DNA of 63,508 nt, filler included, from Folioceros fuciformis (Eukaryota): the NCBI GenBank assembly GCA_049999805.1. It is 3 parts of 3 records of this genome, joined end to end, with 100 filler letters (N's around TTAATTAATTAA, not from the genome) between each part and the next. Parts side by side here need not be neighbours in the genome. Positions count along the whole stretch, not along the records: positions 1 to 27,719 come from JBNGIO010006282.1; 2 more parts are not named here. One strand, given 5' to 3'. Positions 15,920-59,905 of this stretch are shown in pieces (the first letter of the stretch is position 1; the number at the start of each line of letters is the position of its first letter). The notes beneath the pieces were generated by a model. That model had not been told where the DNA came from and did not search any database. It saw only the letters and a program-made list of their open reading frames with translations. The position numbers and the translations under genes are program-made.

Positions 15920-16273
15920 GGCTAGCTCCTCTGCCACAGGGCGACGTCACCGAAAGCCTGCTGTTGGCCGATGCTTCGCCATGCCGGATCAATGCACTCC
16001 AGAGGCTCTCTGTCGGTAACAGACGGTCCTGGTCAGGGAATCGACGGGACCGGAAAGGCAAATGACCGTCTTTATTGAATTGGTGGCTGGGAATACACAC
16101 ACACAGATGCCTGAAAAAGCCCTAGATTATATTGAAGTACTCCTGTGTGACGATCCAACACGCTTGTGTGAAGGATCAGTGAGCAGAACACTGGTATGGT
16201 GACATAAGAATGCAGCAGCTGCTGAAAGTCTGACACTAAAAATTCGTTCAGACCACAGCCTCCGTAATAGTCC

Positions 16274-17786
16274 TCAAAAGGGTTGTGAATCATCAACTTG
16301 CCCCGCAAGGACTGATGGAGGGGATAGCTGGGAAGGCTCTAGGAGTGGCACCACAAAGGGGATGTGGGTATTGAAGAGTGTGATCACACCACCCTGGAGA
16401 GCATTACTGTGCAGCTCGGGTATTCCTTTGTAGTAACCTTGTCTTCTCATCGCACTGTGTACCTTTCGCCTAGGGTGAAATAAAGAACACGAGAGGTTGT
16501 TAGCTGCCGAAGAGGCAAATCAGGCAACTGCAAGATACGGGGAATGAAACCCCAGTGACACCGCTTACCAGTAACGACTCGTGGAAAGATGGTGCCAAAA
16601 TTGAGGACCTCCATTGTGAGTGCGCGCAAGAGTCTCGGAATCTCCATACTCAAGGGCCCATGGACACCAGCGTAACCAGTAATTGATCACGGTGCGTTCT
16701 GCATACTCCACCTCCTCGCAATCAGCGTAATTGGCCAGGTGACTGGCTTGCCACCAAGCATCCGTGTGATAAGGAGTGCTGAGGACCAACAGAGGGGCCG
16801 CTATGCTTAGGATCGGTGAAGGCGGACAACCGTGATCAGTGCAAACGAAATCCGTGCGACCAAACCAGATAGCCCCGCCTTGGATCAAGGAGATCTTCAC
16901 CTTATCTGCAAAGGACCGATGCTGAGACCTCCGTCTCCAACAGGAGCCGGCATGATGAAGCTTGTCTCCACATGCCTCAAAGCGTTGAGTAAGATCCTGT
17001 ACCGCTCCCGATAGTCATCTATGTCACTCGCCTCTGTCGGCCAAAGAAGACAGAGACAAGACATCAAGCACTGCAAAAGATCATCTTCCGAATTCCACAG
17101 CCAGAGATCCGCAGCAAGACGGTGATCCTTCACGAAGCCACACCTTTTGGAGAAGGAAAGACGTCAAAGAACTTGGCGTTGGCGACAGCAGCTAATCCCT
17201 TTATTTTGGCCCTGACCGACTTGAAATTCCAGCCCGGCCAGCGCCTCGGCACTTCCACCGCCTCTTCCGGAATAAACAGAAGATCGCCGGGGTAAAGCAC
17301 GTCCGGAATGCTGCCGTTCGTCTCCTGCAGCTCCTCCAGCGTGAGGCCGAAACGCTCCGAGATCTCCCATGCCGAGTCCCCGGGCTCCACAACAACAGCC
17401 TTGGTCTGCCTGCGACGCGTGGGAGCTGAGGCTGGATCCGCGCCGCGGGTAGGCCCCAGGGAGGCTGCGGGAAGTGCCACAGGCTTGGCCAGCGACAATG
17501 CGACGGATGCAGCTGCCAAACCTGGTCCGGAAGACGAAAGAGCTGAGGCGATCGAAGCGGGTGCGGCACAAGAGGAAGGCAGGCATGCAGAGGAGGAGGA
17601 GGATGGCCGGGGTGGCACCTTGAGCACTTCGCCGGTGAAGATGAGGTCTGAGTGAAGGTTGTTCTCCATCTGGAGATGGCGCCAGGGCACGCCCAGGCGC
17701 TCCGCCAACGTCCACAGCGTGTCTCCCTCCTCAACCACGACAACCCCGCTACTGGCGAAACTGTCGCCAGGCGACGCCATCGCCAT
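16274..17786 (-). CDS. 2xLysM + invertebrate-type (destabilase-like) lysozyme-fold protein, 4 exons
   Basis: LysM1 VVVEEGDTLWTLAERLGV..LIFTGEVLKVP; LysM2 VVEPGDSAWEISERFGLTLEEL..LYPGDLLFIP; spliced C-terminal domain LRHVETS..GDGGLSIGPLQISTPYHTDA..YAERTVINYW.R..ETLARTHNGGP..TSRYWRKV. Confidence 0.8.
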
Positions 17787-18217
17787 AGCCTTCGCACCTA
17801 CCCTTCCTCCTCCTCTTCCTCCCCGCCAGATTGCATTATTGGTGCTCCTAAATGCTTTCACGCCAAATACGAACAAGAAAAGCCTTCTCTGCACCACTAA
17901 TGGCTGCCGCTGGTGTAAAAGTCTTCCTAGAGTTGGTACAAATTGGGTTAAAAACGAGTGCGTTCAGCTCCCAAAGCCAAAATGTCCTGGTTACTTCGGA
18001 CACGCGTTACCATTGTGACCGTGCACAACAGACAGGATGTCCAACGATGAATGTGAGCTCCATTTTACATATCAGGTAGACAGCGAGGGCACCAACTACA
18101 ACTGAATCAGCCCATCTCGTCTTTGCTATTATGAAGTGGATGAGGTGACCGAGGGCAGGGATTAATGAGGAACACTGATGGTTCCATTTTCTTCGTCGAC
18201 CCAAAACCCCATATGAA

Positions 18218-21200
18218 CTAGCTTGCAGCAGTTGGGAGAGGAGGAAAATCAAGGGGTTCTCCAGAAAGTCTCACCCGCTGGCTGAACCTTGCCAAAATCT
18301 GGTCTACTTGATATTCTGCGTTGTCCACAATGGACTGAACTCGGTCATCCCGGAACAGTGGGGCTGGTGTCCATATCTCGAAAGCATCTGGGGCGCGAAT
18401 GGCAGGAGGCTCCTTAGCTTTCGCAAGTGGGCTCCTTGCTTCTCGGCTTGGTGGCACTACAGCAGTCTTGGGCCTGTTGCTGAGGGCATACTGATCAACA
18501 ATGTCATCCAACCTAGGTCTCTTGCCGAAGTACCCACCTGAGAAGGAATTCTCTGTAGCATACGGCCCACCCTGTACTGCAATGGTGGGATCCCTGGGAA
18601 ATACGTACACTATGGGGGGCGGTTCACTGCACAGTAATGATAGTCGGGAGTGAAAGATATTTCTGAAGACTTCGGGCCAGATGGGCAGCACCGATGCTCG
18701 CCCAGACTCCAACCACTTGACTTCACAACTGGTTTGCAGGATCTCTTCTACCTCTTCTTTCACCGCGATGTTAGCTTGTGCTCTACCATCGAGCTGGCAC
18801 AGGTATTTCTGCAAAACCTCAGATGTTGCAGTTTTCTGTGCACTTACGTCTTGAACCACGCCTATTGTCGCGGTTGGTGCATGATGTCTGGAACCCCCTT
18901 CCTTGGAATCCATCGCTGGAAATGGAGGCAACACACAATACTGGAGCACCTGTAGCATTGGGTAGAGAGTCGCTGGCAGATTCCATCCATGTCTTGGAAA
19001 ATTTTTGTGTTCATAGAAAGCAGACTCCACTTCGGGTGGAGGCCAATGCAAGGCAGAAGAACCGGCAGCCTTCGATATATCCATTGCTGCCTGCCACAGA
19101 GCTCGGTTAAAAGAAACAATACAGTCTTGGGGCTTGACTGCTGAGACGGACCCCAGAGACTTTGACTCAACTGCCAAGTGCTCTAGCACGAGGTCTCGAA
19201 GATGCAAGGGGCAGACATTCGGCTGCTTGGGGGACCGTTCAACCAGCCACCCAACACCTTTCTGCAAAGCCTTGTCATCTAAAAATGCATTATCAGACCT
19301 CCCCTCGCCTGCCTCGCCAATAAAGATAACTGTGGAATAAGCAACCTGACTGCTAGGGAGCTCCTGAATTTGTAGGATACTTGCTAAGGCAGATTCAGCA
19401 TTCTCCCCTACCAGTTCCTGCTTCTCCCAAAACTGTGTTCTCCATTGGCTGGATGCAATCACAAGCAGAGGCAATCGAGCCCCAGGCGTTATTGACTCAA
19501 CCACAGCCCGCAGCCGTGTCCGCTCCTCAATTATAGGAACGGTGTCCACCAACAGAAACAAGACTCCCGAGGCTCCATAAAACGACTCCTTTGAGTCAAC
19601 GCTGTCTACACCAAGTCCTACGTCTCTGACAATATAACTAAGGACCACACCATTCAGCTCCGCAACCTCCACTGCAAAGGAACTGCCTTGATATTGAAGG
19701 TCCGCGCTATTCGAGCCCTGCAAATGTGTCCGGCTCTTCAAAGAACATGCTGTGACCTTGCTCCATAACCACCTCCCCAAACGCCGCAAGTGCTTCCCGT
19801 GTAAGGCATTTTGGTTTCCCATATCCCTCAACCTGGAGCAGACGACCAGCTTCCAACATATGCACGTTGCTGCAGGGTTGTTCTTAACCAAGGTGGCAGA
19901 AGTGATGGACAGAATATCCAAACTTGCCCACATCTGTTCAAGTTTTTCCCTGCGAGTCTTGTGCACCCGATTGAAATTGAGGTCTTTCAGGTCCAGCTCG
20001 TCAAAATTGAATACGCCTTCAAAACTCTGAAACACCAAACAAACTGAATCCATAAGGTCATCAATACACCCAAACTACATTTGACTGGACTAGCACACAT
20101 TCCAAGTTGTGAACTCTGACCCTTTGCCCTCGCAAAGGCGGTCCAGCTGACAAAGACAGGAGGGCTGCCTGCGCCCTTTCTCTGCGACGCCGTTTTAGTT
20201 CCAGTGATGCTTCTGTCCTCGACTTCCATCTCTTCAACCAGAGTCGTGTCAATCCAAGATATGCTTCTTCTTTCTCTGCTGCTATCCTCAGTTTCTGCTC
20301 CTCCTCTTCCTGCCTCTTCTTCTCAGCAGCAAAGGCTTCTAGCCTCCTGCGCTCATCATCCTCAGCCTTCCTTTGACGTGCAATTTCCTCGGCTCTCCTT
20401 TGAGCAGCTACTTGTTCCCTATAGTGGGCGGCTTCACGGGCTCGTTGTCGTTCAGCTTCTTCTGCTCTAACTTCAGCCCATACACGTGCAGCTTCTAGAG
20501 CCCTTTCCTGCGCTTGCCTTTCTAATTCCCTCCGATAAATCTCCTCATCCCTTTCTCGACCAGCAACTCTAGCCAAGTTAACAGCTCGTTGTTGCTCTTG
20601 ATGATCCACTTCCCCACGGAACCTCCTAGCTCTGTCACTCCCCACTTCGATTTCAGAATCACTTTTCCTTTTCCACCGCTGAGGACTTGTTTCATGCTGC
20701 ACAACCATCTGAAACTCAGGGTGGCTTGCACTGACTACTTGCTGCTCCTCTTCATAGTCCGGCATATCTTCTTCAAGAGCTGGAGAACTTGGTGAAGGAA
20801 GAGACCAACCGCGATCATACTTCCTCTCAACAACAGAAGGCTTCGGAGGCAAAATATTGGATTGGAATCTGCCATAATTTTGCACATCTGCAACCACTCT
20901 TGTAGACCGCTTCTCCACGACCAATTGAGAACGTCGAGTGGGAAAGGGGGTCTCAGGGGTCACATGGGGGCCTTCTTTAACCAGATATTTCTTTTCATAA
21001 TCCTTGACAGCAAAGCCAACTGACTCGCTATACGCAATCAGAGTGTCTGAATTGTCCTCCTGCTCTTTAAAGACATTAATATCAAGGCCATCAAAACCAG
21101 AATAATCACATCCAAGACTGCACCAAACCATGTGCTTCCTTCAACTTAAGGTGTACCTGTATACCAAGCCAGTCCACTACTTTTGACACAGGAATGCCTT

Positions 21201-26846: not shown

Positions 26847-27680
26847 TTACTTCACTCGTCCTTTCTTCATCACTGTAGAGCAGTCGGTGCAGTACCATTT
26901 GCCTCTTGGCCGGGCAGTGATGCCGACACAGTCGAACTGGAACCACTCTGTCGGGCACTGATGTCCAAGTGCAACAGTGTGATGATTAAAAGGCATTGAG
27001 AAAGAGGTGGCAGGGAAGAACTGGAGTGGTGTCAGCAACTTAGCAAGGGAGGGAAGAATGTGCACCTCTGAATTGTCGCAAGCTATCATTTCNNNNNNNN
27101 NNNNNNNNNNNNNNNNNNNNNNNNNNNNNNNNNNNNNNNNNNNNNNNNNNNNNNNNNNNNNNNNNNNNNNNNNNNNNNNNNNNNNNNNNNNNTGTAGAGC
27201 AGTCGGTGCAGTACCATTTGCCTCTTGGCCGGGCAGTGAACCACTCTATCGGGCACTGATGTCCAAGTGCAGCAGTGTGATGAGTAAAAGGCATTGAGAA
27301 AGAGGTGGAAGGGAAGAACTGGAGTGGTTTCAGCAAATTAGCTAGGGAGGGAAGAATGTGCACCTCTGAATTGTCGCAAGCTATCATTTCACCAAACGAG
27401 ACCTGGTTGCAGTAGCAGTACGTTGGCTCGTTTGGATGCACTGGTAGATCCATCTCCACTGGTGGGGCAGCAGGAACAGTGTACTGCCCTCTGCTGCAGA
27501 GAGCAAATTAACCAGGATGCGACATGCTGAAAGAGAACTGCAGGAGGGAATGGACGCTTTGAAACAAAGTGGTGGTCTTGAGTGCGTACTTTTTCCTCCC
27601 TGATTCCTCTTGAATGAGAATCTCTGACCCTGCTGCAATTCCTTGGCCCCCCATCTGAACTTGCTCTACGCAAGAAGATG
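26847..27680 (-). pseudogene. ING1: ING-family PHD finger 3' exons, two diverged tandem copies around an N gap
   Basis: MEMDLPVHPNEPTYCYCNQVSFGEMIACDNSE|CPIEWF-TARPRGKWYCTDC (21-bp deletion) and a second copy CPTEWFQFDCVGITARPRGKWYCTDC (His replaced by Gln). Confidence 0.8.
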
Positions 27681-27719: not shown

Positions 27720-27819
27720 NNNNNNNNNNNNNNNNNNNNNNNNNNNNNNNNNNNNNNNNNNNNTTAATTAATTAANNNNNNNNNNNNNNNNNNNNNNNNN
27801 NNNNNNNNNNNNNNNNNNN
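27720..27819. other. Assembly gap with artificial TTAATTAATTAA linker (scaffold join)
   Basis: The 12-mer at 27764-27775 is embedded in a 100-bp N run and has stops in all six frames. Confidence 0.95.
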
Positions 27820-29440: not shown

Positions 29441-30427
29441 GTGACAAATGACACCGGCTCCCTCCTTTGCACACCACAATGCACCACCCTACTTCCCCNN
29501 NNNNNNNNNNNNNNNNNNNNNNNNNNNNNNNNNNNNNNNNNNNNNNNNNNNNNNNNNNNNNNNNNNNNNNNNNNNNNNNNNNNNNNNNNNNNNNNNNNCC
29601 CCTGCATCAGCTAGTCCTCTAGACTATCCCAAGGGGACCACGCTCCCGTACCATGCTACCAAGATGGACATTGATTCGGCCACCTCCTCCCTCCTGCAAG
29701 GGGACTTGATAGAGATTCCCTGCAGGGATGGCCCCAGGCTCGCCGGTTAGTGCCAAACACCGGCACCCTGTGATCTGTTTTGCTGTCGCCGGCACCGGTT
29801 CTGCTGTTTCTCATGCAGCACATTTGTACCATAATGTTATTGAAGCGGCTGCAAAGAAAGCCGCCAGGTCTCTCCAACATCTTCCTTCCATCCTGCCTTA
29901 CCTTGTCCCCTCCAGGCTTTGGAGCATAGGCTAAGTCGGCTACTTTGGCACATTACTGGACGCAATCTGACGCAGAAAGGTAAAGGTAACAACACAGCGC
30001 CAAGATCTAGGTCCTCCCCAAGAGGATTGATCGGGGTAGAACGGCCTCCAAATCCCCAGTTGCCACACCTGAAGAGTGTCTTGGAGATTCGTCAGCATCG
30101 TATGTCCCACAACACAACGGGAAGAGGGGTGACTGTGTACACACGTCTGGTTCCTTCGCACCCGGGCCCTTCCTTGCGGGAAAGGTACAGCTATGATCGA
30201 AGTATGTATACATACAAACATTGTGATGGCCGTTGGCCTACTTATCGCTGTGCCCAGTTCACGAATGGTTTCGTTCGAAGCTGTTCTTCCAATTACAGCT
30301 CCTCTTTCCGCAGCCCTAACTCATTCGACGGGCTGATCTCCGTACGGTGCTCTGTGCGGGATCGCGGTCGGCCTTGCTATACTCTCCAGGCTGAACTAGG
30401 GACGAGGTCTCTATTGACACGTTTCAG

Positions 30428-35534: not shown

Positions 35535-35642
35535 TATGCATCTTATTATGCATCCTATGCATCTTATTATGCATCCTATGCATCTNNNNNNNNNNCATCT
35601 TATTATGCATCCTATGCATCTTATTATGCATCCTATGCATCT
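35535..35642. repeat. 21-bp tandem repeat with N gap
   Basis: TATGCATCTTATTATGCATCC units. Confidence 0.85.
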
Positions 35643-41123: not shown

Positions 41124-42530
41124 AATAGGGGTACCTCCAGGAGGGTAGTTGGAGTAGGAAGGAGAGTAGATAGCGAGCCTGGGGTTTGCACCACCGGCGT
41201 TGGCAAGCCAGGAGGGGGCACTTCAGGGGCAGGGACAGCCGCAGGAATCACATGTGCCGGCAGCACCGTAGGCCTCCTCCAGTAGAGGATATTCCAAAAG
41301 ATCACCAGCACCAGGGTATGGAGGGCTTATGGTGTGAGAGGGAAGAGCTCCCACTGGCACTGGGCTGCCATAGAAAGGAGATTCATCGAAGACCACATCT
41401 CTCGCCACAATGATCTTACGGGCTGCAAGATCATAAAGGCGATAAGCCTTCGATTCTATACTGTAGCCTACCAACACACAGGTGAGGGCCTTGGAATTGA
41501 GTTTGTGGCGCAAATCCTTGGGATTGTGTGCGTAGGCGTAGCAACCAAAGGTTCGTAGATGAGAGATAGAAGGCTTACGACCCGTCCAAGCCTCCTCTGG
41601 AGTGATGTTGGGGACAGCACTGGTTAGTACACGATTGTGCAAGTAGGCTGCTGTGGAGATGGCCTCCGCCCAAAGGGTATTGGGAAGGCCGGCTACCTTA
41701 AGCATTGTATGAGCGGCCTCCACAAGCGTGCGATTGAGGCGTTCAGTGACCCCATTTTGCTCAGGTGTATACGATACAGTAAGTTGTCTCTGAATATGAC
41801 CTTGAGCAATAGTCCTGGGATGCATGATTGCAATACTCTGTGCCATTGTCAATGCAAAGGAGGTGAATCTTTTGCCCATGTTGTGTTTCTACGTGGGTGC
41901 AATAGGACTTAAGAGCATCCAGGACATCACTCTTGTGGCGTAGAAAATAGACAATAACATGCCTAGTGTAGTCATCAATGAAGGTGAGAAGCCAGGTCTT
42001 GCCACCTGTAGATTGAGTTTGGAAAGGACCGCAAAGATCACTATGTATGAGCTCTAACACCTTGGTGGCCCTATGTGCTCTAGTTTTGGGAAACGGGCAG
42101 CGTTGATGCTTGCCATGCACGCAGCCTTCACAAAAACTAGGAGCATCACGAGAATTGACAGTGAGTCCAATAAGTGCCTGCTTTCCAAGCATGTCTTGCA
42201 GTTTGCTAGAACTCACATGGCCTAACCTTTGGTGCCACAAGTCAAGAGAGGTGAGGGGATTACTGACTATGACTTTTAATGTTGCAGGGGTGAAGCCCAA
42301 GTTCGAAGGGGAAGAACCGCCTGGAGCACCGCTAAGCACATAGAAGTCACCTTGTTTCTCACCTGTAAGAGCCAAATCACCTCGTGGATCTTGTATGGTG
42401 AAGTTAGTTCTATGCAACTGTAAATTGTAACCAGCATTTGTGATACGACCTACGGAGAGTAAATTTCGCTTCAACCCGGGAACATGCAGGACATCTATAA
42501 TAAGCCTCTCGGATCCATCATGGAAAGCAA
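41124..42530 (-). mobile_element. Ty1/copia internal fragment (GAG-pre-integrase + integrase), no LTRs seen
   Basis: VLHVPGLKRNLLSV; LWHQRLGH..CEGC; LELIHSDLCGP; FIDDYTR; YTPEQNGVTERLNRTL; RDVVFDE; frameshift near 41800. Confidence 0.92.
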
Positions 42531-42649
42531 TATAGTGTGTGTAACAAAAAACAATTCTACACAGCAAAAACATAGAATCATTTAGCTATTGCTCGTCCAC
42601 ATTTTGATGCCTACTTTGTTTGGAGAGTGCTCTCTTAAAACCCTGGCTA

Positions 42650-46074: not shown

Positions 46075-49000
46075 TTAACTCAATGCATGTTTAGTACTGC
46101 CCACCACAAAACTGTGCACTTGGCCATCCACGTCTGTCCACCAACTCTGACCCGGCTGCTTCCATGCCCTGAGTGCTGTCCTGCTCGTCTGCATCTTCTG
46201 TGCTTGCTCCCACATCTGGGCATTTGCGTATATGTTCAACATCAGCACATGCGCTGCGGAATCTGTCTCGTCTAGCTTCACTGCTTGGTCAAGAGCACGG
46301 CGTCCCACATCAACGTTGCTCCACTTCTGACAAGCACCTAACAAAGTGCGCCAGACTGCAGCCTCAGGCCGCACAGGCATCGTATTTACCAGATCGATGG
46401 CCTCATCCAGTTGGCCTGCACGTCCCAGGAGGTCCACCAGGCATGCATAATGCTCGACAGTGGGGACGATGCCATAGTCTTTGCTCATAGCGTCGAAGTA
46501 CTCCTGCCCTTTGCTTACGAGACCTCTATGACTACATACCGTTAGTACACAAAGGGAAGTGATGGCATCTGGCCGTATTCCCTCCCTTTTCATCCTGAGA
46601 ATCAGGTGGAAGACCTCTTGACTGTCTCCTTGCCGGCTATATCCAGCAACCAGTGCATTCCAGACAACAATGGTTCGTTCCGGCAATTCCTCAAAGACTT
46701 GTTGTGCATCAACCATGCTCCCAGAATGTCCGTACATGTCGATCAAACTGCAGGCCACAAACGCATCAGATTGAAGTCCTTGTTCCTCAATCTGTGCATG
46801 AAGCTGCCTTCCCAGATGCAGGGCACCCACGTTTGCACAAGCCTCGAGGAGGCACACAAATGTCATGGAATCTGGTACAGCAATGCCTTCATCTTGCATA
46901 GCACGGTAGATAGAAAGGGAATTCTGGGCCATACTATGGTGGGAATACCCTGCGATTAGAGCCGTCCACGTGACCACATCTTTCTGGCCGAGTCCATGAA
47001 ACACCCTCGCAGCTTCCTCCATGCTCCCACACTTTGCATACATGTTGACCAAACTGTTAGCTACAAATGTATCTGCTTGATGTCCTTGTTCAATTATTTT
47101 CTCATGAAGTTGCCTCCCTCTCTCTACAGCCGGGGTGCCTATACTGGCACAAGCCTGGAGGAGACACACAAATGTCACCGAATTCGGTACGGCAATACCC
47201 TCTTCTAGCATGGAATCGTAGAGATGAAGGGCTTCCTGGCCCAAGCCCTGCTGGGAAAACCCGGCTATCATGGAAGTCCAGGTCACCACATCTTTCTGAC
47301 CAAGTCCGTCAAACACACTCTGAGAGTCTTTCAAGCTGCCACACTTGGCATACATGTTGACCAAGTTGTTGGCGACAATGACGTCAGCTTCGTGTCCTCC
47401 TCCTCTAATTTGTGCATGGAGCTGCTTCCCCACCTCCAATGCAGCGGGGCCCAGACTTGCACACGCCTGGAGGAGCCACAGAAATGTAAGAGAATTGGGC
47501 ACAGCCGTGCCTTCTTCTTCCATAACCCTGTAGAGACGAAGGGCTTCTTGCTCCAGACCTTGCTGAGAATATGCTGCTATCATTGCATTCCATGTCCCCA
47601 CATCGTTTTGAATGAGTCCATCAAACAAGCTTCGAGCATCGCCAATGCTGCCACACTTTGCATACATGGTCACCAAACTGCTGGCTATGCCCACATCATC
47701 CTGGAGTCCTTGTTCACTAATTTTCGTATGAAGCTGCATGCCCATTCCCAATGCCGGACTACCTACACTTGCACATGCCTGCAGGAGGTACATAAACGTT
47801 CTGGAATCGGATTCTGCAATGCCTTCTTCTTGCATGCGCCTGAAGAGGCAAAGGGCTTCATGGCCCATGCCCTGCTGAGAGTACCCTGCTATCATGACAT
47901 TCCAAGTGACCACATCCTTCTCCACAAGTCTGTCAAACACTCTCCGGGCGTCTACCAAGCTGCCACACTTTGCGTACATGTTCACCAAACTAGTGGATAT
48001 ATAGACATCTTCTTGGTGTCCTTGTTCTCTAATTTTTGTGTGAAGCTGCTTCCCCTTCTCCAAAGCTGGGGTGCCTAAACTCGCACATGCCTGCAGAAGG
48101 CACAAAAAAGTCACGGAGTTGGGTACAGCCATGCCGTCATCTTGCATAGCACCGTAGAGATGAAGAGCTTCCTGCTCCATTCCCTGCATGGAATACTGTC
48201 CTATCATGCAATTCCACGACACCACATCTTTCTGAACGAACCCGTCAAATACTCTTTGAGCATCCTCCAAGCTGCCACACTTCGCATACATCTGCAATAA
48301 ACTGCTAGCTACAAACGCATCACCTTGATATCCTAGTTCTCTAATTTGTGTATGAAGCTGCTTCCCTGTCTCCAATGCTGGAGTGCCCAAGCCTGCACAT
48401 GCTTGCAGGAGGCACACAAATGTTACAGAATTGGGAACAGCTATGCCTTCCTCTTGCATAGCACAGTATTGCCGAAGGGCTTCCTGACCCATGCCCTGCT
48501 GGGAATATCCTGCAATGAGAGCCGTCCATGTGACCTCATCTTTCGTACTAAGGCCTTCAAAAACTCTCCGAGCGTCCTCTAGACTGCCACACTTGGCATA
48601 CATGTTAACCAAACTGTTGGCTACAAACACATCATCTTCATGTCCTAGCTCCCTAATTTGAGCATGAAGCTGCTTCCCTTTCTCCAGAGCTAGGGCGCCG
48701 ACACCTGCACAGGCCTGTAGCAGGCACACAAATGTCACGAAGTCGGGAGCGACATTCCCTTCGTTCTGCATCCTGCTGTAGAGACAAAGGGCTTCATGGC
48801 CCAAGCCCTGCTGACAATACCCTCCTATCATGGCGTTCCATGTCACCACATCTTTGCTGCCAAGTCCATCAAAGACCATTTGCGCATCCTCTAGACTTCC
48901 ACACTTTGCATACATGTCCACCAAGCTATTCCAGACAAACAAGTGAGGCTCAAGCCCACTGGCCAACACATCTGCATGCACCTCTTTCCCTGTTTTCAAG

Positions 49001-49863
49001 TCTGATCCCCTTCCACAAGCCTGAAGGGCTGCTACAAATGTATGACCATCTGGCTCCACGCTTGACCTGCGCAACTTATGGTACAGTAGTATGGCCTCCT
49101 TGTCTTCCCCGTGTTTGCAATACGCAGAAATTATGGAACTCCACATGAAGGCATCGGGTTGGGCAACCAGAGTGAACACATCCATCGCGTCTTGCAACCT
49201 GCCATGAGCAGCGTACATTCGTAGAATATGGTTGCACAGGAACGTGTCCGACTGGTATCCCTTTTTCACTGTGAAAGCATGGACTCGGCGACCCAAAACA
49301 AGATCTCTTTTGCCCATACAAATCTTCAGCACAGAATAGAATACAGACTTGGAAATACACGACTCCGTCTGCACCAGAAACCCCAAACCCTCAACAGCCT
49401 CAGCCAGATGGCCCTGATCACATAGCCTAGTCACGGTCTCAGTTGTTGCACCCTTTTCCCACAGATCACCCGGCAAGGTCCTGGTGGATTTGGTGGCTCG
49501 ATAATTCCTCCCAATACCCATATCCAGAACAGCAAGCTCCGCATCCGTGCAAGCTGGTCCGTGTGAATCGTGGGAGAGGGAGAACCTGAGGTCAGACCAA
49601 CGCTTGAACCTCCTCCTTCGCCAGCATTCCCACCAAATTGTGTGGTCTTGATGACACTGGGTCTGCGGGCGCAAAAGCAACAAGCCATGTTCCCGACAGA
49701 AATGACCGTCTCCAGGAACGTATCCTCGTGCACACGAAGGATCTTTTGAAACCCTTGCGCAACTGATAATTTCGTTGTTTCCGAAGACTTGATTTTCAAT
49801 TGCAACCATCCAGACACCCATGATTAGCCTCAGGAGAACGAATGGGCAGGATGGAAAACGCAT
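46075..49863 (-). CDS. Intronless PLS-class PPR protein with E1/E2 and truncated DYW:WW-type start (organellar RNA-editing factor type)
   Basis: About 9 P-L-S triplets (MYAKCGSLEDA..DVVTW..); HYACLVDLLGRAG; VWRTLLGAC; ends WKQPGQSWWTDVDGQVHSFVVG..* with no HxE/CxxC. Confidence 0.95.
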   Translation of the reverse strand: MRFPSCPFVLLRLIMGVWMVAIENQVFGNNEIISCARVSKDPSCARGYVPGDGHFCREHGLLLLRPQTQCHQDHTIWWECWRRRRFKRWSDLRFSLSHDSHGPACTDAELAVLDMGIGRNYRATKSTRTLPGDLWEKGATTETVTRLCDQGHLAEAVEGLGFLVQTESCISKSVFYSVLKICMGKRDLVLGRRVHAFTVKKGYQSDTFLCNHILRMYAAHGRLQDAMDVFTLVAQPDAFMWSSIISAYCKHGEDKEAILLYHKLRRSSVEPDGHTFVAALQACGRGSDLKTGKEVHADVLASGLEPHLFVWNSLVDMYAKCGSLEDAQMVFDGLGSKDVVTWNAMIGGYCQQGLGHEALCLYSRMQNEGNVAPDFVTFVCLLQACAGVGALALEKGKQLHAQIRELGHEDDVFVANSLVNMYAKCGSLEDARRVFEGLSTKDEVTWTALIAGYSQQGMGQEALRQYCAMQEEGIAVPNSVTFVCLLQACAGLGTPALETGKQLHTQIRELGYQGDAFVASSLLQMYAKCGSLEDAQRVFDGFVQKDVVSWNCMIGQYSMQGMEQEALHLYGAMQDDGMAVPNSVTFLCLLQACASLGTPALEKGKQLHTKIREQGHQEDVYISTSLVNMYAKCGSLVDARRVFDRLVEKDVVTWNVMIAGYSQQGMGHEALCLFRRMQEEGIAESDSRTFMYLLQACASVGSPALGMGMQLHTKISEQGLQDDVGIASSLVTMYAKCGSIGDARSLFDGLIQNDVGTWNAMIAAYSQQGLEQEALRLYRVMEEEGTAVPNSLTFLWLLQACASLGPAALEVGKQLHAQIRGGGHEADVIVANNLVNMYAKCGSLKDSQSVFDGLGQKDVVTWTSMIAGFSQQGLGQEALHLYDSMLEEGIAVPNSVTFVCLLQACASIGTPAVERGRQLHEKIIEQGHQADTFVANSLVNMYAKCGSMEEAARVFHGLGQKDVVTWTALIAGYSHHSMAQNSLSIYRAMQDEGIAVPDSMTFVCLLEACANVGALHLGRQLHAQIEEQGLQSDAFVACSLIDMYGHSGSMVDAQQVFEELPERTIVVWNALVAGYSRQGDSQEVFHLILRMKREGIRPDAITSLCVLTVCSHRGLVSKGQEYFDAMSKDYGIVPTVEHYACLVDLLGRAGQLDEAIDLVNTMPVRPEAAVWRTLLGACQKWSNVDVGRRALDQAVKLDETDSAAHVLMLNIYANAQMWEQAQKMQTSRTALRAWKQPGQSWWTDVDGQVHSFVVGSTKHALS

Positions 49864-50792: not shown

Positions 50793-52756
50793 ATGGATCG
50801 ACTGCTGGTGGTGGACCCGAAGGAGCTGGTGATGCATTTCGAGCTCGGGAGCAAATGTTGGGGCGTGCTGCATGTCCGCAATGTGATGCACACAATGCCT
50901 GTGGCATTCAAGGTGCAGACCACGGCTCCCGACAAATACATCGTGAGGCCCCCGACTGGAGTGATTCCGCCCCTTGGAACTGCGGACTTGGAGGTGGAGA
51001 TGCAGGCCACGGCCGAGTACCCGGAGCACTTCCCCTTCACCAAGGACAAGTTCGTGGTGAAGAGCGTGGTTGTGCCAGGAAATGCAAGAGAGAGCCCTCG
51101 GATTCCTCCATCGGAATGGTTCAATTTCAAGAAGAAGGTCGTGTTTGCGGACGCCAGGCTGAAGGCGCTGGTGGTTGGTTCGGGGATTTTGAGGCTGCTG
51201 CTGGCGAGACCAACGTCTGACATGGAAGATATCAGAGCTGTGCTGGAAAGGGATGTGGATGTGGACGGGGTGGACGAGCTCGACCGCACAGCAATGCATA
51301 TTGGTAAGTGCTCCGGGATCGTGAAGCATGCCATTCTCGATTGGATTCATTCAGTGCTTTGGAGAACGTCAAGGCCGTACTGCAACTGACAGTCAGAAGG
51401 ACATGTATGTTCTGTTGTTGCAATTCTGTCGGTCCTTCGTTGCCAATCATACGGCTCACGAAGTCTTTTGCGCATGTTGCAGCTGTTGCAAGCGGCAGAC
51501 CAGAGCTGGTGCAGCTTCTGCTGGAGTACGCACCGAACCTCGAGAAGAAGAGTCGGGAGGGGCGCACTCCTTTGCAAGATGCAGCCCTGGCAGGGGAACC
51601 GCTGATGGTGGAGATTCTGCTTTCGAAAGGAGCTGATCCCGATGCGGCAGATACCAGGGGCCAAACAGCGTTGCATCTGGCACTGGTAGGGGGCCATCTT
51701 GACGTGGTCCGTATCCTGCTAGATCGAGGTGCGAACGTGGATGCTGCTATTGGAGATGGCAGAACCGCGATGCACATTGCGGTGGAGGAAGGGCTGAGAA
51801 AGAGCTTGAAAGTGCTGCTGGAGAACGGAGCCTTCCCGGATGCTGCCATATCCGGAAGCGGACAGACGGCTTTGCATCTGGCAGCGGCGAGGAATGACAA
51901 GGCGATGGTGAAGCTGCTGGTGAGGAACGGGGCCAGCACCCGAATGCAGGACCGCCGGGGGTTGACGGCAGCGGGCGTGGCAGCGGATGCAGGGCACGTG
52001 AAGCTGCTGGACATCCTTGAGCTAGGGGAGAAGCTGCGAGACGCAGCAAGGCGGGGAGATGTTGGAGAAGTTCGTCGTAGCCTAGAGAAAGGGGCGAGCG
52101 TCGACGGGCAAGACGGGAGAGGCTGGGGCGCACTTCACAAGGCTGCGTTCAAGGGCCATGTTGCGCTGGCCGAGTTGTTGGTGGACTGGGGAGCAGATCT
52201 GGAGCTTAGGGATGAAGAAGGCCACACTCCGCTGCACTGCGCGGTGGAAGCGAGGCAGACGGACGCTGTCCGCTTGTTGGTCGACAGAGGAGCTGATCAG
52301 CGAGCTGTGACGAAGGGGGGAGCTTCTCCGCTCGACATCGCCAAGATGCTGCATCTACCAGGCGTTCTCAGAGTTTTGGAAGGGAAGCCACCTGAAGTCG
52401 AACCAGCCAAGCCGAAGAGTGTGCTGAGAAGCCGATTGTCCTTGTCCCACAGGCATAAGGCGGTGACATTTGATCTGCCGGACGACGACGTCCACAGCGA
52501 GGGCGAGGATGATGAAGAGGGGCCTACAGATCTGCCCCAGCAGCAGCAACAGGATCCACTTTCAAGCCATAATACGCACATCCCATGTTCTACCAAGGAA
52601 AGTGCTACAGATTTTTCGTGGTCCCAGAAGATGCAGACTTGGGGGGCAGACCCTGTCGACTACAGTTATAGGAAGGCGCCCTCGGTGAACATACACATCA
52701 CTATTTGCAACGTGGATTTGAGCCAGTGTCAGAACTTGCTAAGTGCACAACACTGA
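50793..52756 (+). CDS. VPY: VAPYRIN (MSP/VAP domain + ankyrin repeats), one intron at about 51304-51482
   Basis: MDRLL..LHVRNVMHTMPVAFKVQ..YIVRPPTGVIPPL..EWFNFKKKVVFADARLK, followed by multiple ankyrin repeats (GRTPL, GQTALHLA, GHTPLHCA). Confidence 0.88.
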
Positions 52757-57372: not shown

Positions 57373-59805
57373 TGACAATATTGCTTAGAGAGAACAACAA
57401 ACTTGAATAATGAATAATGTATATATGATTACAAAGTGTTGGTCTTAAATACTAAACCCTAAGTAACATGTCTAACCCTAGTCTAGGTAACCCAGCGACC
57501 GTGGTTACTATAATAAACTATGGGGTTTAACACACCCCCTTAACCACGACGCTAGTTATACTAGGGACGTAGACGAAGATGGGCGATGTAGAAAACGAGC
57601 TGAGTGTTGGACGATTAGGTGAACGATAAGCTTCATCCATCCAGCACCCGGCACCTCCACCTGCAACTCAAGGCAAGTAGGAAGAATAGTTTACGAGGCC
57701 TAGTGCCTCCGTGTGGAAGACATGCTTGTTTGTTGGTAAGCCCTTTGTAAGCAAGTTGGCTGTATTGAGCTCCGTGGATATGTGTTGGATCTTAATCACC
57801 TTGCGCTCCACGGAATGTCGAACATAGTGGTGGTGAACTTCGATGTGATTGGTGCACGCATGAAAGCGGGGATTCCCAACCAAGGTAATAGTAGACATAT
57901 TGTCGCAAAAGATAGTGGTGGGAACCGACTGAGGAAAGCCCAATCCTGCAAGAAAAGTGCGCTCCCATTCAGCCTCGTTGGCTGAGTCTGTGAGAGCTTT
58001 GTATTCGGCCTCAGTTGAAGAGAGGGCTATGGAAGTTTGTTTCTTAGAGCTCCAGTTGACTGCCACACCAGAGAGTAGGAAACAATATGCAGAAATGCTT
58101 TTCCTTTGATCTGGGTCTGTAGCCCAATCAGCATCTGCGTATCCCTCAAGGGTGAATGCACGGTCATCGCCCTGGGAACATAACCCAAATGTAGAGGTGC
58201 CTTTAAAGAACCATAGGATCCTCTGAACTGCCATCCAATGTTCGGGGCCTGGGTTCTCAAGGTATTGGGAAACAACACTAACAGAGTGCTAAATATCCGG
58301 TCTAGTCCAGCAGCTAATGTAATTAAGGCAGCCCACGGCATGGCGGTAAGGAACTTGACTCATAGCCTCACATTCATAGTCATCTTGCGAGCACTGGTGA
58401 GCAGAGAGCTTAACCCCAAGGCTTCCTGGTGTGCTGATAGGTTTAGCATCCTGCAAGTTAAATCGTCTAAGAGTCTCACCAATATATTTAGTCTGATGTA
58501 GGATAAGGGTACGGTTGGGTCTATCTCGCAACAGCTGAACGCCAAGGACAAAGGTAAGTGGTCCAATGTCCTTCATATTGTACTCCTTGTGCAGCATTCC
58601 TTTCACCCAGTCCAGTAATTCTCTGTTGTTGGATGCTAGTATAACATCATCCACATAAAGTGCTAGGATGTCCAGGTGACCTCCTTTGGAATAGATGTAG
58701 ACGTTGGAGTCAGCTGGATTTTGGATGAAACCTATCGACTTGAGATATTTATCAATACATTTGTACCACTCACGGGCACTTTGCTTCAAGCCGTATATGG
58801 TCTTGTTTAATTTGTAGACCCAATCTGAATGTTCAGCGTCCACGAATCCTTCAAGCTGATCCACATATATGTCTTCTTCAAGTGCTCCATACAAGAATGC
58901 GGTTGAAATGTCCATCTGCTCGAGATCCCAATCTCTAGCAACTGCAAGAGCAAGCAGCATCCTGATAGTCTGTGTCTTGACAACAGGGCTGAATGTCTCA
59001 TTCAAGTCTACCCCTGCAACTTGAGAAAAACCCCGAGCAACCAAACGTGACTTGTAGCGGGCTGTTTCTCCCTGAGCATTCAGCTTGTGTTTGAAAACCC
59101 ATTTGCAACTCACTGGTTTCCTCCCAGCAGGTAAAGGACATAGCTCCCATGTCCCATTCTTAATTAATGAATTATATTCATCTTGAATTGAAGGGATCCA
59201 ATGATGCTTGTCCGGACCAATAATGGCCTCTCGATATGTACGAGGTTCTGCTGGATGAGCTGTGCTTGTAGAGAAGGCTTCACATAGCCTTGCAGATCGA
59301 GGAAGACGGAAATCCTCTGGTTCATATGGTCCTTCATTCCAGCTGTCTCGTGCAGGACGAGATCTTGTAGGATACCTCCGTTCCTCGACTACAGGTTCAG
59401 GAAGTGTCTCCTCAGCTGGTTGTGGCTCAAGCTCTGGAAGGGCTGCAAGCTCAGGTTCATCTTCTAGCTGGTCAGGACCATCAAGATGGATGTCCACATG
59501 TTGTGAGTCAAACTGAGACTCGTCATCCTGCTCAACTTCTACATCCTGCTGCTCAGGAAAATCCACAAAAGAGTCAGCAGTAACTGTGGCTGTGGGTGCA
59601 AGAGTCGATGGTGCAGGTGCTTGCACAGGAACCTGTGTCTGTGATGAAGGAGGAGCCTGCGGGACCTGCACATATGCAGGAAATCCACCCCCTGAACTGC
59701 TAGCTGCCTGAAGATCAAAAGGAGGGCGAGGTGGCAAGTCATAAGCAACATATTGAGGATACTCTGTGGGAGGGGCATCAAAGTCCGCATCATCAAAAGG
59801 AGGAG
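57373..59805 (-). mobile_element. Ty1/copia 3' half: RT, RNase H, PPT and ~160-bp 3' LTR (57373-57532)
   Basis: YKSRLVARGF; QMDISTAFL; YVDD; GYADADWA; SSTEAEY; PPT AAGGGGGTG then TGTTAAACC..ATTGTCA on the minus strand; stop at 58289. Confidence 0.92.
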
Positions 59806-59905
59806 NNNNNNNNNNNNNNNNNNNNNNNNNNNNNNNNNNNNNNNNNNNNTTAATTAATTAANNNNNNNNNNNNNNNNNNNNNNNNNNNNNNNNNNNNNNN
59901 NNNNN
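59806..59905. other. Assembly gap with TTAATTAATTAA linker
   Basis: 12-mer at 59850-59861 within Ns. Confidence 0.95.

Follow-up and report, generated by a model that had tools for sequence, protein, structure and literature searches.

The i-type lysozymes are usually treated as an invertebrate speciality, and the animal enzymes carry many disulfide cysteines. The described members that come closest to the protein considered here are those of Meretrix lusoria (3AB6 and 4PJ2) and Tapes japonica (2DQA) and the destabilase of the leech Hirudo (8BBU and 8BBW), all grouped under the Pfam family Destabilase (PF05497). A second set of enzymes, comprising LytE, the NlpC/P60 endopeptidases of Thermus thermophilus, DipM and MltD, has a common layout in which N-terminal LysM repeats are followed by a domain that cleaves the cell wall. 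The LysM module binds glycans of the N-acetylglucosamine (GlcNAc) type, such as peptidoglycan fragments and chito-oligomers, and plants whose plastids are surrounded by peptidoglycan have to cleave this layer for growth and division. According to the part of the report that is available, DipM homologues are needed for chloroplasts to divide in a moss (PMC4015805), and the accessible portion of a 2009 survey of plant LysM genes describes a "LysMn" class of intracellular, non-secretory LysM proteins, one subclade of which is mostly from moss (PMC2728734, BMC Evol Biol 2009).

The gene studied here lies at 16274..17786, on the minus strand, of a stretch of 63,508 nucleotides ("the window") from Folioceros fuciformis (GenBank assembly GCA_049999805.1), which consists of three parts of three records joined by 100 filler letters each; positions 1 to 27,719 come from record JBNGIO010006282.1. 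An earlier note, made from the sequence alone, had taken the gene for a fusion of two LysM modules with an invertebrate-type lysozyme. The present analysis identifies it as an expressed, spliced nuclear gene of a land plant, whose product is placed by homology, fold and active-site residues in the i-type lysozyme/destabilase superfamily and belongs to an old family that is conserved in streptophyte algae and in land plants without flowers. The reading that we prefer, with a probability of roughly 0.65, is that the protein is a soluble, intracellular, LysM-guided muramidase acting on peptidoglycan, with the plastid envelope as the favoured site.

Structure and expression of the gene

The gene model comprises the following features, with coordinates along the window.

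16274..17786, minus strand: coding region of four exons and 393 amino acids, ATG at 17786 and stop at 16276-16274 (exons joined and translated)
17787..17848, minus strand: 5′ untranslated region, to the extent of contig record 4 of run X1
17144..17786, minus strand: exon 1, with the start codon, first LysM domain (LysM1), linker, second LysM domain (LysM2) and motif ANAKFFDVFP; ends in phase 1
17034..17143, minus strand: intron 1, 110 nucleotides, GT..AG, skipped by contigs of runs X1, X3 and X4
16901..17033, minus strand: exon 2, the N-terminal lysozyme helix with Glu and Asp, and GPLQI; covered by the profile alignment to solved i-type lysozymes
16779..16900, minus strand: intron 2, 122 nucleotides, GT..AG, skipped by contigs of runs X1, X3 and X4
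16569..16778, minus strand: exon 3, the lysozyme core (ARTHNGGP, RYW)
16470..16568, minus strand: intron 3, 99 nucleotides, GT..AG, skipped by contig record 2 of run X1
16274..16469, minus strand: exon 4, the last lysozyme helix, C-terminal tail and stop
16057..16273, minus strand: 3′ untranslated region, to the extent of contig record 2 of run X1, which spans 16057-16468

The joined exons amount to 1182 nucleotides, that is, 393 codons and a single terminal stop, and over its whole length the spliced protein aligns with nine orthologues, all from embryophytes, at 58-66% identity. All three introns are of the GT-AG type and their phases (1, 2 and 2) are compatible. Splicing was assessed on contigs of public sequencing runs, namely X1, whose contigs are identical to the window, and X3 and X4, which come from two related organisms; the kind of library is not on record for these runs, and only the bridging of contigs was used, not depth. 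The X1 contigs are joined at 16468/16568 (99 nucleotides, cut at +1), 16778/16901 (122 nucleotides) and 17033/17144 (110 nucleotides), each gap reading CT..AC on the plus strand, so that the three introns are skipped exactly at the borders of the gene model; introns 1 and 2 are skipped in the contigs of X3 and X4 as well. Contig record 4 of X1 covers 17144-17848 and continues at 17033. Intron 2 is kept in one X1 contig of 180 nucleotides, and its presence beside the joined contigs indicates that unspliced and joined forms both exist.

The only irregularity in the alignment with the nine orthologues lies at junction 1, where the model contains three residues (EAS) that the orthologues lack; the acceptor used there is nevertheless backed by the contig joint. 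The fragments P0003 and P0015, from contigs of other genomes, match residues 259-329 of the model only, which is exactly exon 3, and this suggests, from the sequences, that introns 2 and 3 are old. No in-frame ATG occurs upstream of 17786 in the open frame, which extends back to 17963, and ATG 17786 was therefore taken as the protein start. The 5′ leader contains a 12-codon upstream open reading frame (17798-17836, minus strand; ATG 17836, stop 17800-17798), which does not share the frame of the main ATG and is covered by the 5′ contig. For the upstream gene on the same strand the contig stops at 17901, and that of the lysozyme gene starts at 17848, which leaves about 50 nucleotides between the two transcripts and fits a very compact genome. 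Within the linker region of exon 1, one X4 contig joins 17520 to 17618 (97 nucleotides, CT..AC) and a second X4 contig reads through; this joint may represent alternative splicing or a species difference, and the 97-nucleotide skip would shift the frame.

A divergent i-type lysozyme domain joined to two LysM modules

The protein features to which the argument refers are listed below.

17613..17738, minus strand: LysM1, residues 17-58, the best stretch in the Pfam LysM match
17406..17606, minus strand: Ser/Ala/Pro-rich linker of 67 residues (S16 A17 P9)
17268..17396, minus strand: LysM2, about residues 131-173, the second Pfam LysM stretch, with a PF23473 match at 133-166; aligned with LysM2 of the orthologues
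17154..17183, minus strand: motif ANAKFFDVFP, after LysM2 and ahead of the lysozyme domain, conserved in embryophyte orthologues
16966..16968, minus strand: codon GAG of Glu237, putative general-acid catalyst, opposite position 14 of 8bbu_A
16933..16935, minus strand: codon GAC of Asp248, putative second catalytic carboxylate, opposite position 26 of 8bbu_A
16334..16378, minus strand: C-terminal motif LFNTHIPF..P.LE, conserved in embryophyte and zygnematophyte orthologues, predicted to be disordered (predicted local distance difference test score, pLDDT, about 50 in the orthologue model)

Homology of the C-terminal domain to the i-type lysozymes is carried by profiles. A profile of nine orthologues matched the solved structures 3ab6 (E-value 1.6e-7), 8bbu (2.5e-7) and 2dqa (9.4e-5), and one of 148 sequences, with residues 7-121 of 124 covered, matched 8bbu (1.9e-24), 3ab6 (7.7e-23) and 2dqa (1.1e-20). 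The larger alignment was assembled from 141 of 158 collected proteins, with the omission of eight longer than 500 amino acids and nine fragments or mis-annotated entries, and from seven further sequences. The Pfam Destabilase cut-off is reached by seven of 21 relatives, including the LysM-LysM orthologue of Mesostigma (26.2 bits) and the relative P0045 (48.2 bits). When the three lysozyme exon pieces were scanned singly against Pfam none of them matched, because the pieces are too short. No SLT match was given by Pfam in the window pieces, the orthologues or the relatives scanned, and neither an M23 nor an NlpC/P60 domain in the window pieces or orthologues.

Within this domain the motif string quoted in the earlier note is present (VETS followed by eight residues and D, SIGPLQIS, LARTHNGGP and YWRKV), and the motifs GPxQI, ARxHNGGP and YWxKV are nearly invariant across the family alignment. 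Of the rows without a gap, 135 of 138 have Glu in the column of Glu237 and 140 of 143 have Asp in that of Asp248, in agreement with the muramidase-type site proposed at the outset; Glu and Asp at positions 14 and 26 of 8bbu_A are what we take to be the catalytic pair of the animal i-type lysozymes. With its Sphagnum counterpart the domain shares 81% identity, and exon 3 is 83% identical to its Marchantia counterpart over 69 amino acids. Cysteine is scarce, as had been noted: the whole protein contains four and the lysozyme domain two, which is also the median for the domain among the 148 relatives, whereas the cysteines of the animal enzymes are visible where the 148-sequence profile is aligned to the solved chains.

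The fold was predicted for the Physcomitrium (moss) orthologue rather than for the window's own spliced protein, and the structural results refer to that model. AlphaFold gave a mean pLDDT of 49.6 with the nine-orthologue alignment and of 82.9 with the 148-row alignment, in which the block means of the lysozyme domain were 93-98. Foldseek aligned this model to 8bbw, 8bbu, 2dqa and 3ab6 with template-modelling (TM) scores of 0.70-0.75, which bears out the lysozyme fold by the route that the earlier note had suggested. In VIA-align, the i-type lysozymes and destabilase occupied the top five rows (Z 13.8-14.0, root-mean-square deviation 2.7-3.0, 112-114 residues), and lytic transglycosylases came next (Z 11.3 or below). 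With only four cysteines and no N-terminus resembling a signal peptide, the protein is assigned to a divergent, Cys-poor branch of the i-type lysozyme/destabilase family and is not a typical member.

The N-terminal part is equally clear in its assignment. The translation of exon 1 matches Pfam LysM (PF01476) in two stretches with 74.5 bits (cut-off 20.9; E-value 6.2e-21), so that both halves of the proposed LysM-LysM-lysozyme architecture stand. The LysM pair is nearest to that of LytE (8i2e, E-value 6e-21, by profile) and to that of the T. thermophilus NlpC/P60 enzyme (4uz2, by profile and Foldseek). For the plant proteins NCBIfam gave matches in the LysM region only, all of them below cut-off, and the ESM Atlas yielded only LysM and LysM+SLT clusters, with scores up to 0.91, which are an analogy and not evidence. 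The 67-residue linker between LysM1 and LysM2 faces a gap in all nine aligned orthologues and is specific to the protein of this genome. The motif ANAKFFDVFP sits at the edge of a low-confidence stretch of the moss model (residues 111-140, block means 48-71), and both it and LFNTHIPF..P.LE, which land plants share with zygnematophytes, may be docking or targeting motifs.

Neither the window protein nor its plant and algal relatives are built for export. The model of the moss orthologue has its first LysM strand starting at residue 8, and the window protein at about residue 15, which, judged from sequence and model, would leave no space for either a signal or a transit peptide. N-terminal hydropathy peaks at 1.86 in the window protein; the maxima of 15 proteins from plants and algae run from 0.15 to 1.86, and those of four bacteria-like relatives from 2.70 to 3.44. 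The absence of a clear signal peptide, already remarked on in the earlier note, is thus found again. A regular-expression flag for a signal peptide on the window protein was rejected as caused by the first LysM strand, and hydropathy windows were used in its place. These revealed no conserved membrane span in the plant and algal orthologues. A C-terminal tail anchor was likewise considered and dropped, the hydropathy of 1.4-1.9 being confined to the liverwort, Ginkgo-type and window tails, low elsewhere and hence not conserved.

Range of the family and surroundings of the gene

A search with exon 3 returned 14 candidates, among them 11 longer proteins with 72-83% identity, from Marchantia, Riccia, Sphagnum, Physcomitrium, Diphasiastrum and Ginkgo. 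The LysM-fused form has named holders in mosses, liverworts, lycophytes (Selaginella and Diphasiastrum) and Ginkgo and in the streptophyte algae Coleochaete, Closterium, Mesotaenium, Chlorokybus and Mesostigma, and it also occurs among metagenome proteins and in a collection of marine eukaryote transcriptomes. A tree built from 23 LysM-type proteins puts the window protein inside the embryophyte clade (support 99/97), with the streptophyte algae branching outside; the window protein belongs to none of the moss, liverwort and Ginkgo-type subclades, and its placement relative to the two lycophytes is not fixed. The earlier note had not recognized the family as a standard one of land plants. This impression is mistaken as to occurrence, given the conservation just described and the automatic name "lysozyme" that several orthologues bear in UniRef, which also means that the domain assignment itself is not new. 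It holds as to the literature, where no publication characterizing the family was found; a paper on moss peptidoglycan hydrolases, seen by title only, stands outside this negative (Utsunomiya et al., 2021). No plant work combining destabilase and LysM was found, their co-mention being confined to two papers, on tsetse flies and on phage lysins; nor did searches return i-type lysozyme literature on plants, moss or plastids, or publications under the gene or protein identifiers from Marchantia, Physcomitrium and Selaginella. The word "lysozyme" does not occur in the 2009 survey of plant LysM genes (PMC2728734), and the accessible part of a review of plastid peptidoglycan makes no mention of hydrolases, lysozyme, LysM or DipM (PMC10784329).

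The Cys-poor domain is more widespread than its fusion to LysM. A HMMER search with the Ginkgo fragment collected 982 cluster representatives with an E-value of at most 0.001, 278 of them at 1e-10 or below. A second green subfamily has the same Cys-poor lysozyme domain without LysM, and some of its members are also auto-named "lysozyme" in UniRef. Its long forms (500-1350 amino acids) carry the domain at the N-terminus, followed by a long C-terminal extension; they occur in Selaginella (P0029), Ceratopteris (P0063), Adiantum (P0114), Closterium (P0039 and P0040) and Spirogloea (P0028), and were left out of the domain tree. The only family match in their tails is a weak one to DUF3490, in Selaginella. 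Short LysM-less forms are found in Chlorokybus, Mesostigma and the chlorophyte Myrmecia.

The closest non-green relatives are short Destabilase-domain proteins from metagenomes and Planctomycetota, with 40-54% identity to the domain of Ginkgo across some 90 residues. These bacteria-like proteins are likewise poor in cysteine and possess the conserved motifs; they differ in their length of 130-250 amino acids, in hydrophobic N-termini (in the four examined) and in LysM, which was detected in none of the 15 rows scanned. NCBIfam matched none of five such proteins, and a search with P0045 located four loci in Planctomycetota genomes (L001-L004, match at about 2001-2414). The unrooted domain tree of 153 rows, consisting of the 148 alignment rows, four Planctomycetota translations and the window protein, gathers all rows of the green lineage in one set of 38 (Shimodaira-Hasegawa-like approximate likelihood-ratio test, SH-aLRT, 96), with the bacteria-like rows outside. 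The set includes the short LysM-less forms, and LysM was detected in one of seven unassigned rows scanned within it. An ancient link to the bacteria-like clade is possible, with an ancient transfer in either direction compatible with the unrooted tree.

Elsewhere in the window, the large upstream neighbour (18221-21140, minus strand) contains frames of 618 and 359 amino acids with no Pfam match. An intron-less frame of 1262 amino acids (46078-49863, minus strand) encodes a PLS-type pentatricopeptide repeat (PPR) protein with an E motif (PPR_2, E-value 3e-135; E_motif, 1.8e-12), which is likely to be an organellar RNA-editing factor, and a frame of 482 amino acids (51308-52753, plus strand) is rich in ankyrin repeats (Ank_2, E-value 2e-52). 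Copia-type retroelement pieces (gag-pre-integrase with integrase core; RVT_2, E-value 2e-71) are present at 41764-42585 and 58292-59857, both on the minus strand, and the latter adjoins runs of N. Eight runs of N, taken as assembly gaps, add up to 396 bases, none of them near the lysozyme gene; they include those at 1323-1332, 27093-27192, 27720-27819, 29499-29598, 35586-35595 and 59806-59905.

Possible function and comparison with known systems

It is quite probable that the protein is an active enzyme of the muramidase type, as predicted from its active site. In the mechanism that we envisage, the LysM modules would hold a GlcNAc-containing glycan strand and so tether the enzyme, and the lysozyme domain would hydrolyse the β-1,4 bond from N-acetylmuramic acid (MurNAc) to GlcNAc, with Glu237 serving as general acid and Asp248 as the other carboxylate, in the manner of the animal i-type lysozymes. 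The protein would work inside the cell on peptidoglycan, a role that we infer because it is not built for secretion, is strongly conserved and seems to be of low copy number. The favoured target would be the peptidoglycan of the plant's own plastid envelope, during turnover or division, where the role would resemble that of the LysM-guided septal hydrolases DipM and LytE. This choice of substrate is tentative and falls short of even odds.

In favour of the plastid envelope, the taxon range of the family coincides with lineages reported to keep the full toolkit for plastid peptidoglycan synthesis, and the degree of conservation looks like that of a housekeeping gene. The toolkit is reported in full for lineages that hold the family in the available parts of two papers (PMC10784329, PMC8964177), the first of which also reports it as complete in a few angiosperms, Asparagus and Citrus. 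Several observations weigh against the preferred reading, most of them against its plastid part. The Pfam Destabilase model scores seven of 11 close orthologues at 13.1-20.2 bits, below its cut-off of 26.2, and does not match the other four. A transit peptide would not fit in any of the orthologues, although the peptidoglycan is enclosed by the outer envelope. There is no angiosperm among the named matches, which come from word-indexed searches only, and a pattern of loss in flowering plants is common to many unrelated genes. The identifiers of the Marchantia orthologue are absent from the five supplementary files, out of seven, that were available from a plastid proteome preprint (PMC13419835). 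The same tables, to the extent available, list three other LysM proteins (MARPO_0040s0119, MARPO_0059s0074 and MARPO_0089s0038), the last two of which are flagged "yes" in file 3, a flag whose meaning was not checked; plastid-associated LysM proteins may thus exist in liverworts. It is tempting to speculate further that this family provides the enzyme so far missing for cutting the glycan strands of the plastid wall, a host-side, LysM-guided enzyme of non-cyanobacterial origin that would reach the intermembrane space without a canonical transit peptide, would remodel or split peptidoglycan as chloroplasts grow and divide, and would have been lost with the wall pathway in flowering plants; taken as a whole, this extended proposal has a minor chance of being correct.

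As an alternative, an antibacterial muramidase directed at pathogens or symbionts, for example cyanobacterial partners, could act upon cell damage, by unconventional secretion or on intracellular bacteria, and such a role would agree with the animal relatives, which the titles of 3ab6, 2dqa and 4pj2 describe as immune or digestive lysozymes, and with the accessible literature on plant LysM proteins, best known from microbe perception. However, an N-terminus resembling a signal peptide is found in none of the 15 plant and algal proteins, the high conservation and species-like tree are probably unlike those of fast-evolving defence genes, and orthologues occur in plants both with and without cyanobacterial symbionts, and defence is an unlikely role. 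The lack of a targeting peptide, and of a membrane span in most orthologues, would also suit a cytosolic scavenger of peptidoglycan fragments or chito-oligomers, released from the plastid wall or from microbes, that recycles them or avoids the triggering of immunity. LysM in general binds such glycans. In the available text of PMC9434261 it is argued that contact between plastid peptidoglycan and the LysM proteins of the host has to be avoided. Against a scavenger stand the lack of evidence that such fragments occur in the plant cytosol and the preference of i-type lysozymes for polymeric substrate, which make this role distinctly unlikely.

A different activity altogether, namely that of an isopeptidase like leech destabilase, a lytic transglycosylase, a chitinase or a pseudo-enzyme that only binds, is suggested by the top sequence match among solved structures, which is the destabilase 8bbu, and by the fact that lytic transglycosylases and a GH23 chitinase have the same fold (Z 9-11). 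It is nonetheless improbable: both carboxylates of the hydrolase site are conserved, whereas lytic transglycosylases need Glu alone, the i-type lysozymes score about 2.5 Z units above the transglycosylases, and Pfam SLT is not matched. As to origin, the suggestion in the earlier note that the gene was horizontally acquired does not survive for any recent event, from bacteria or animals, and contaminant DNA in the assembly is likewise highly improbable; horizontal acquisition retains a place only as the ancient link considered above. The nearest non-green relatives are indeed bacteria-like, four of them encoded in Planctomycetota genomes, but contigs of this organism bridge three spliceosomal introns and those of two related organisms the first two, the borders of exon 3 recur in fragments from other plant genomes, and ordinary plant genes (PPR, ankyrin and copia) accompany the gene in the window. 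Recent transfer is ruled out by the spliceosomal introns together with a tree that follows plant phylogeny, in which the green rows form their single set of 38 and the inner tree of 23 proteins tracks the relationships of the plants.

A LysM-guided intracellular muramidase thus remains our preferred reading, and it differs from each of the known systems that it resembles. With the animal i-type lysozymes and destabilase the plant domain shares the fold and the Glu and Asp columns, whereas it is only 24-29% identical to them in sequence, has no signal peptide, is fused to two LysM modules and occurs in plants. With the LysMn class, as described in the accessible portion of the survey, it shares LysM without a signal peptide. 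Its resemblance to the septal hydrolases DipM and LytE is one of layout only: the catalytic domain bears no relation to the M23 and NlpC/P60 peptidases, probably cuts glycan rather than peptide, and is not preceded by a signal peptide. The i-type fold and active site are present here in a conserved, intron-bearing family of streptophyte algae and of land plants without flowers, stripped of disulfides and signal peptide and fused to LysM. For research on the plastid wall, this provides a directly testable candidate gene for glycan cleavage, with a taxon range that matches that of the wall; if the target is instead bacterial, the family would represent an unusual intracellular arm of early land-plant immunity. 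In either case, the GH22-like i-type lysozymes prove wider in range and more varied in architecture than was known, and a large bacteria-like branch is added to them.

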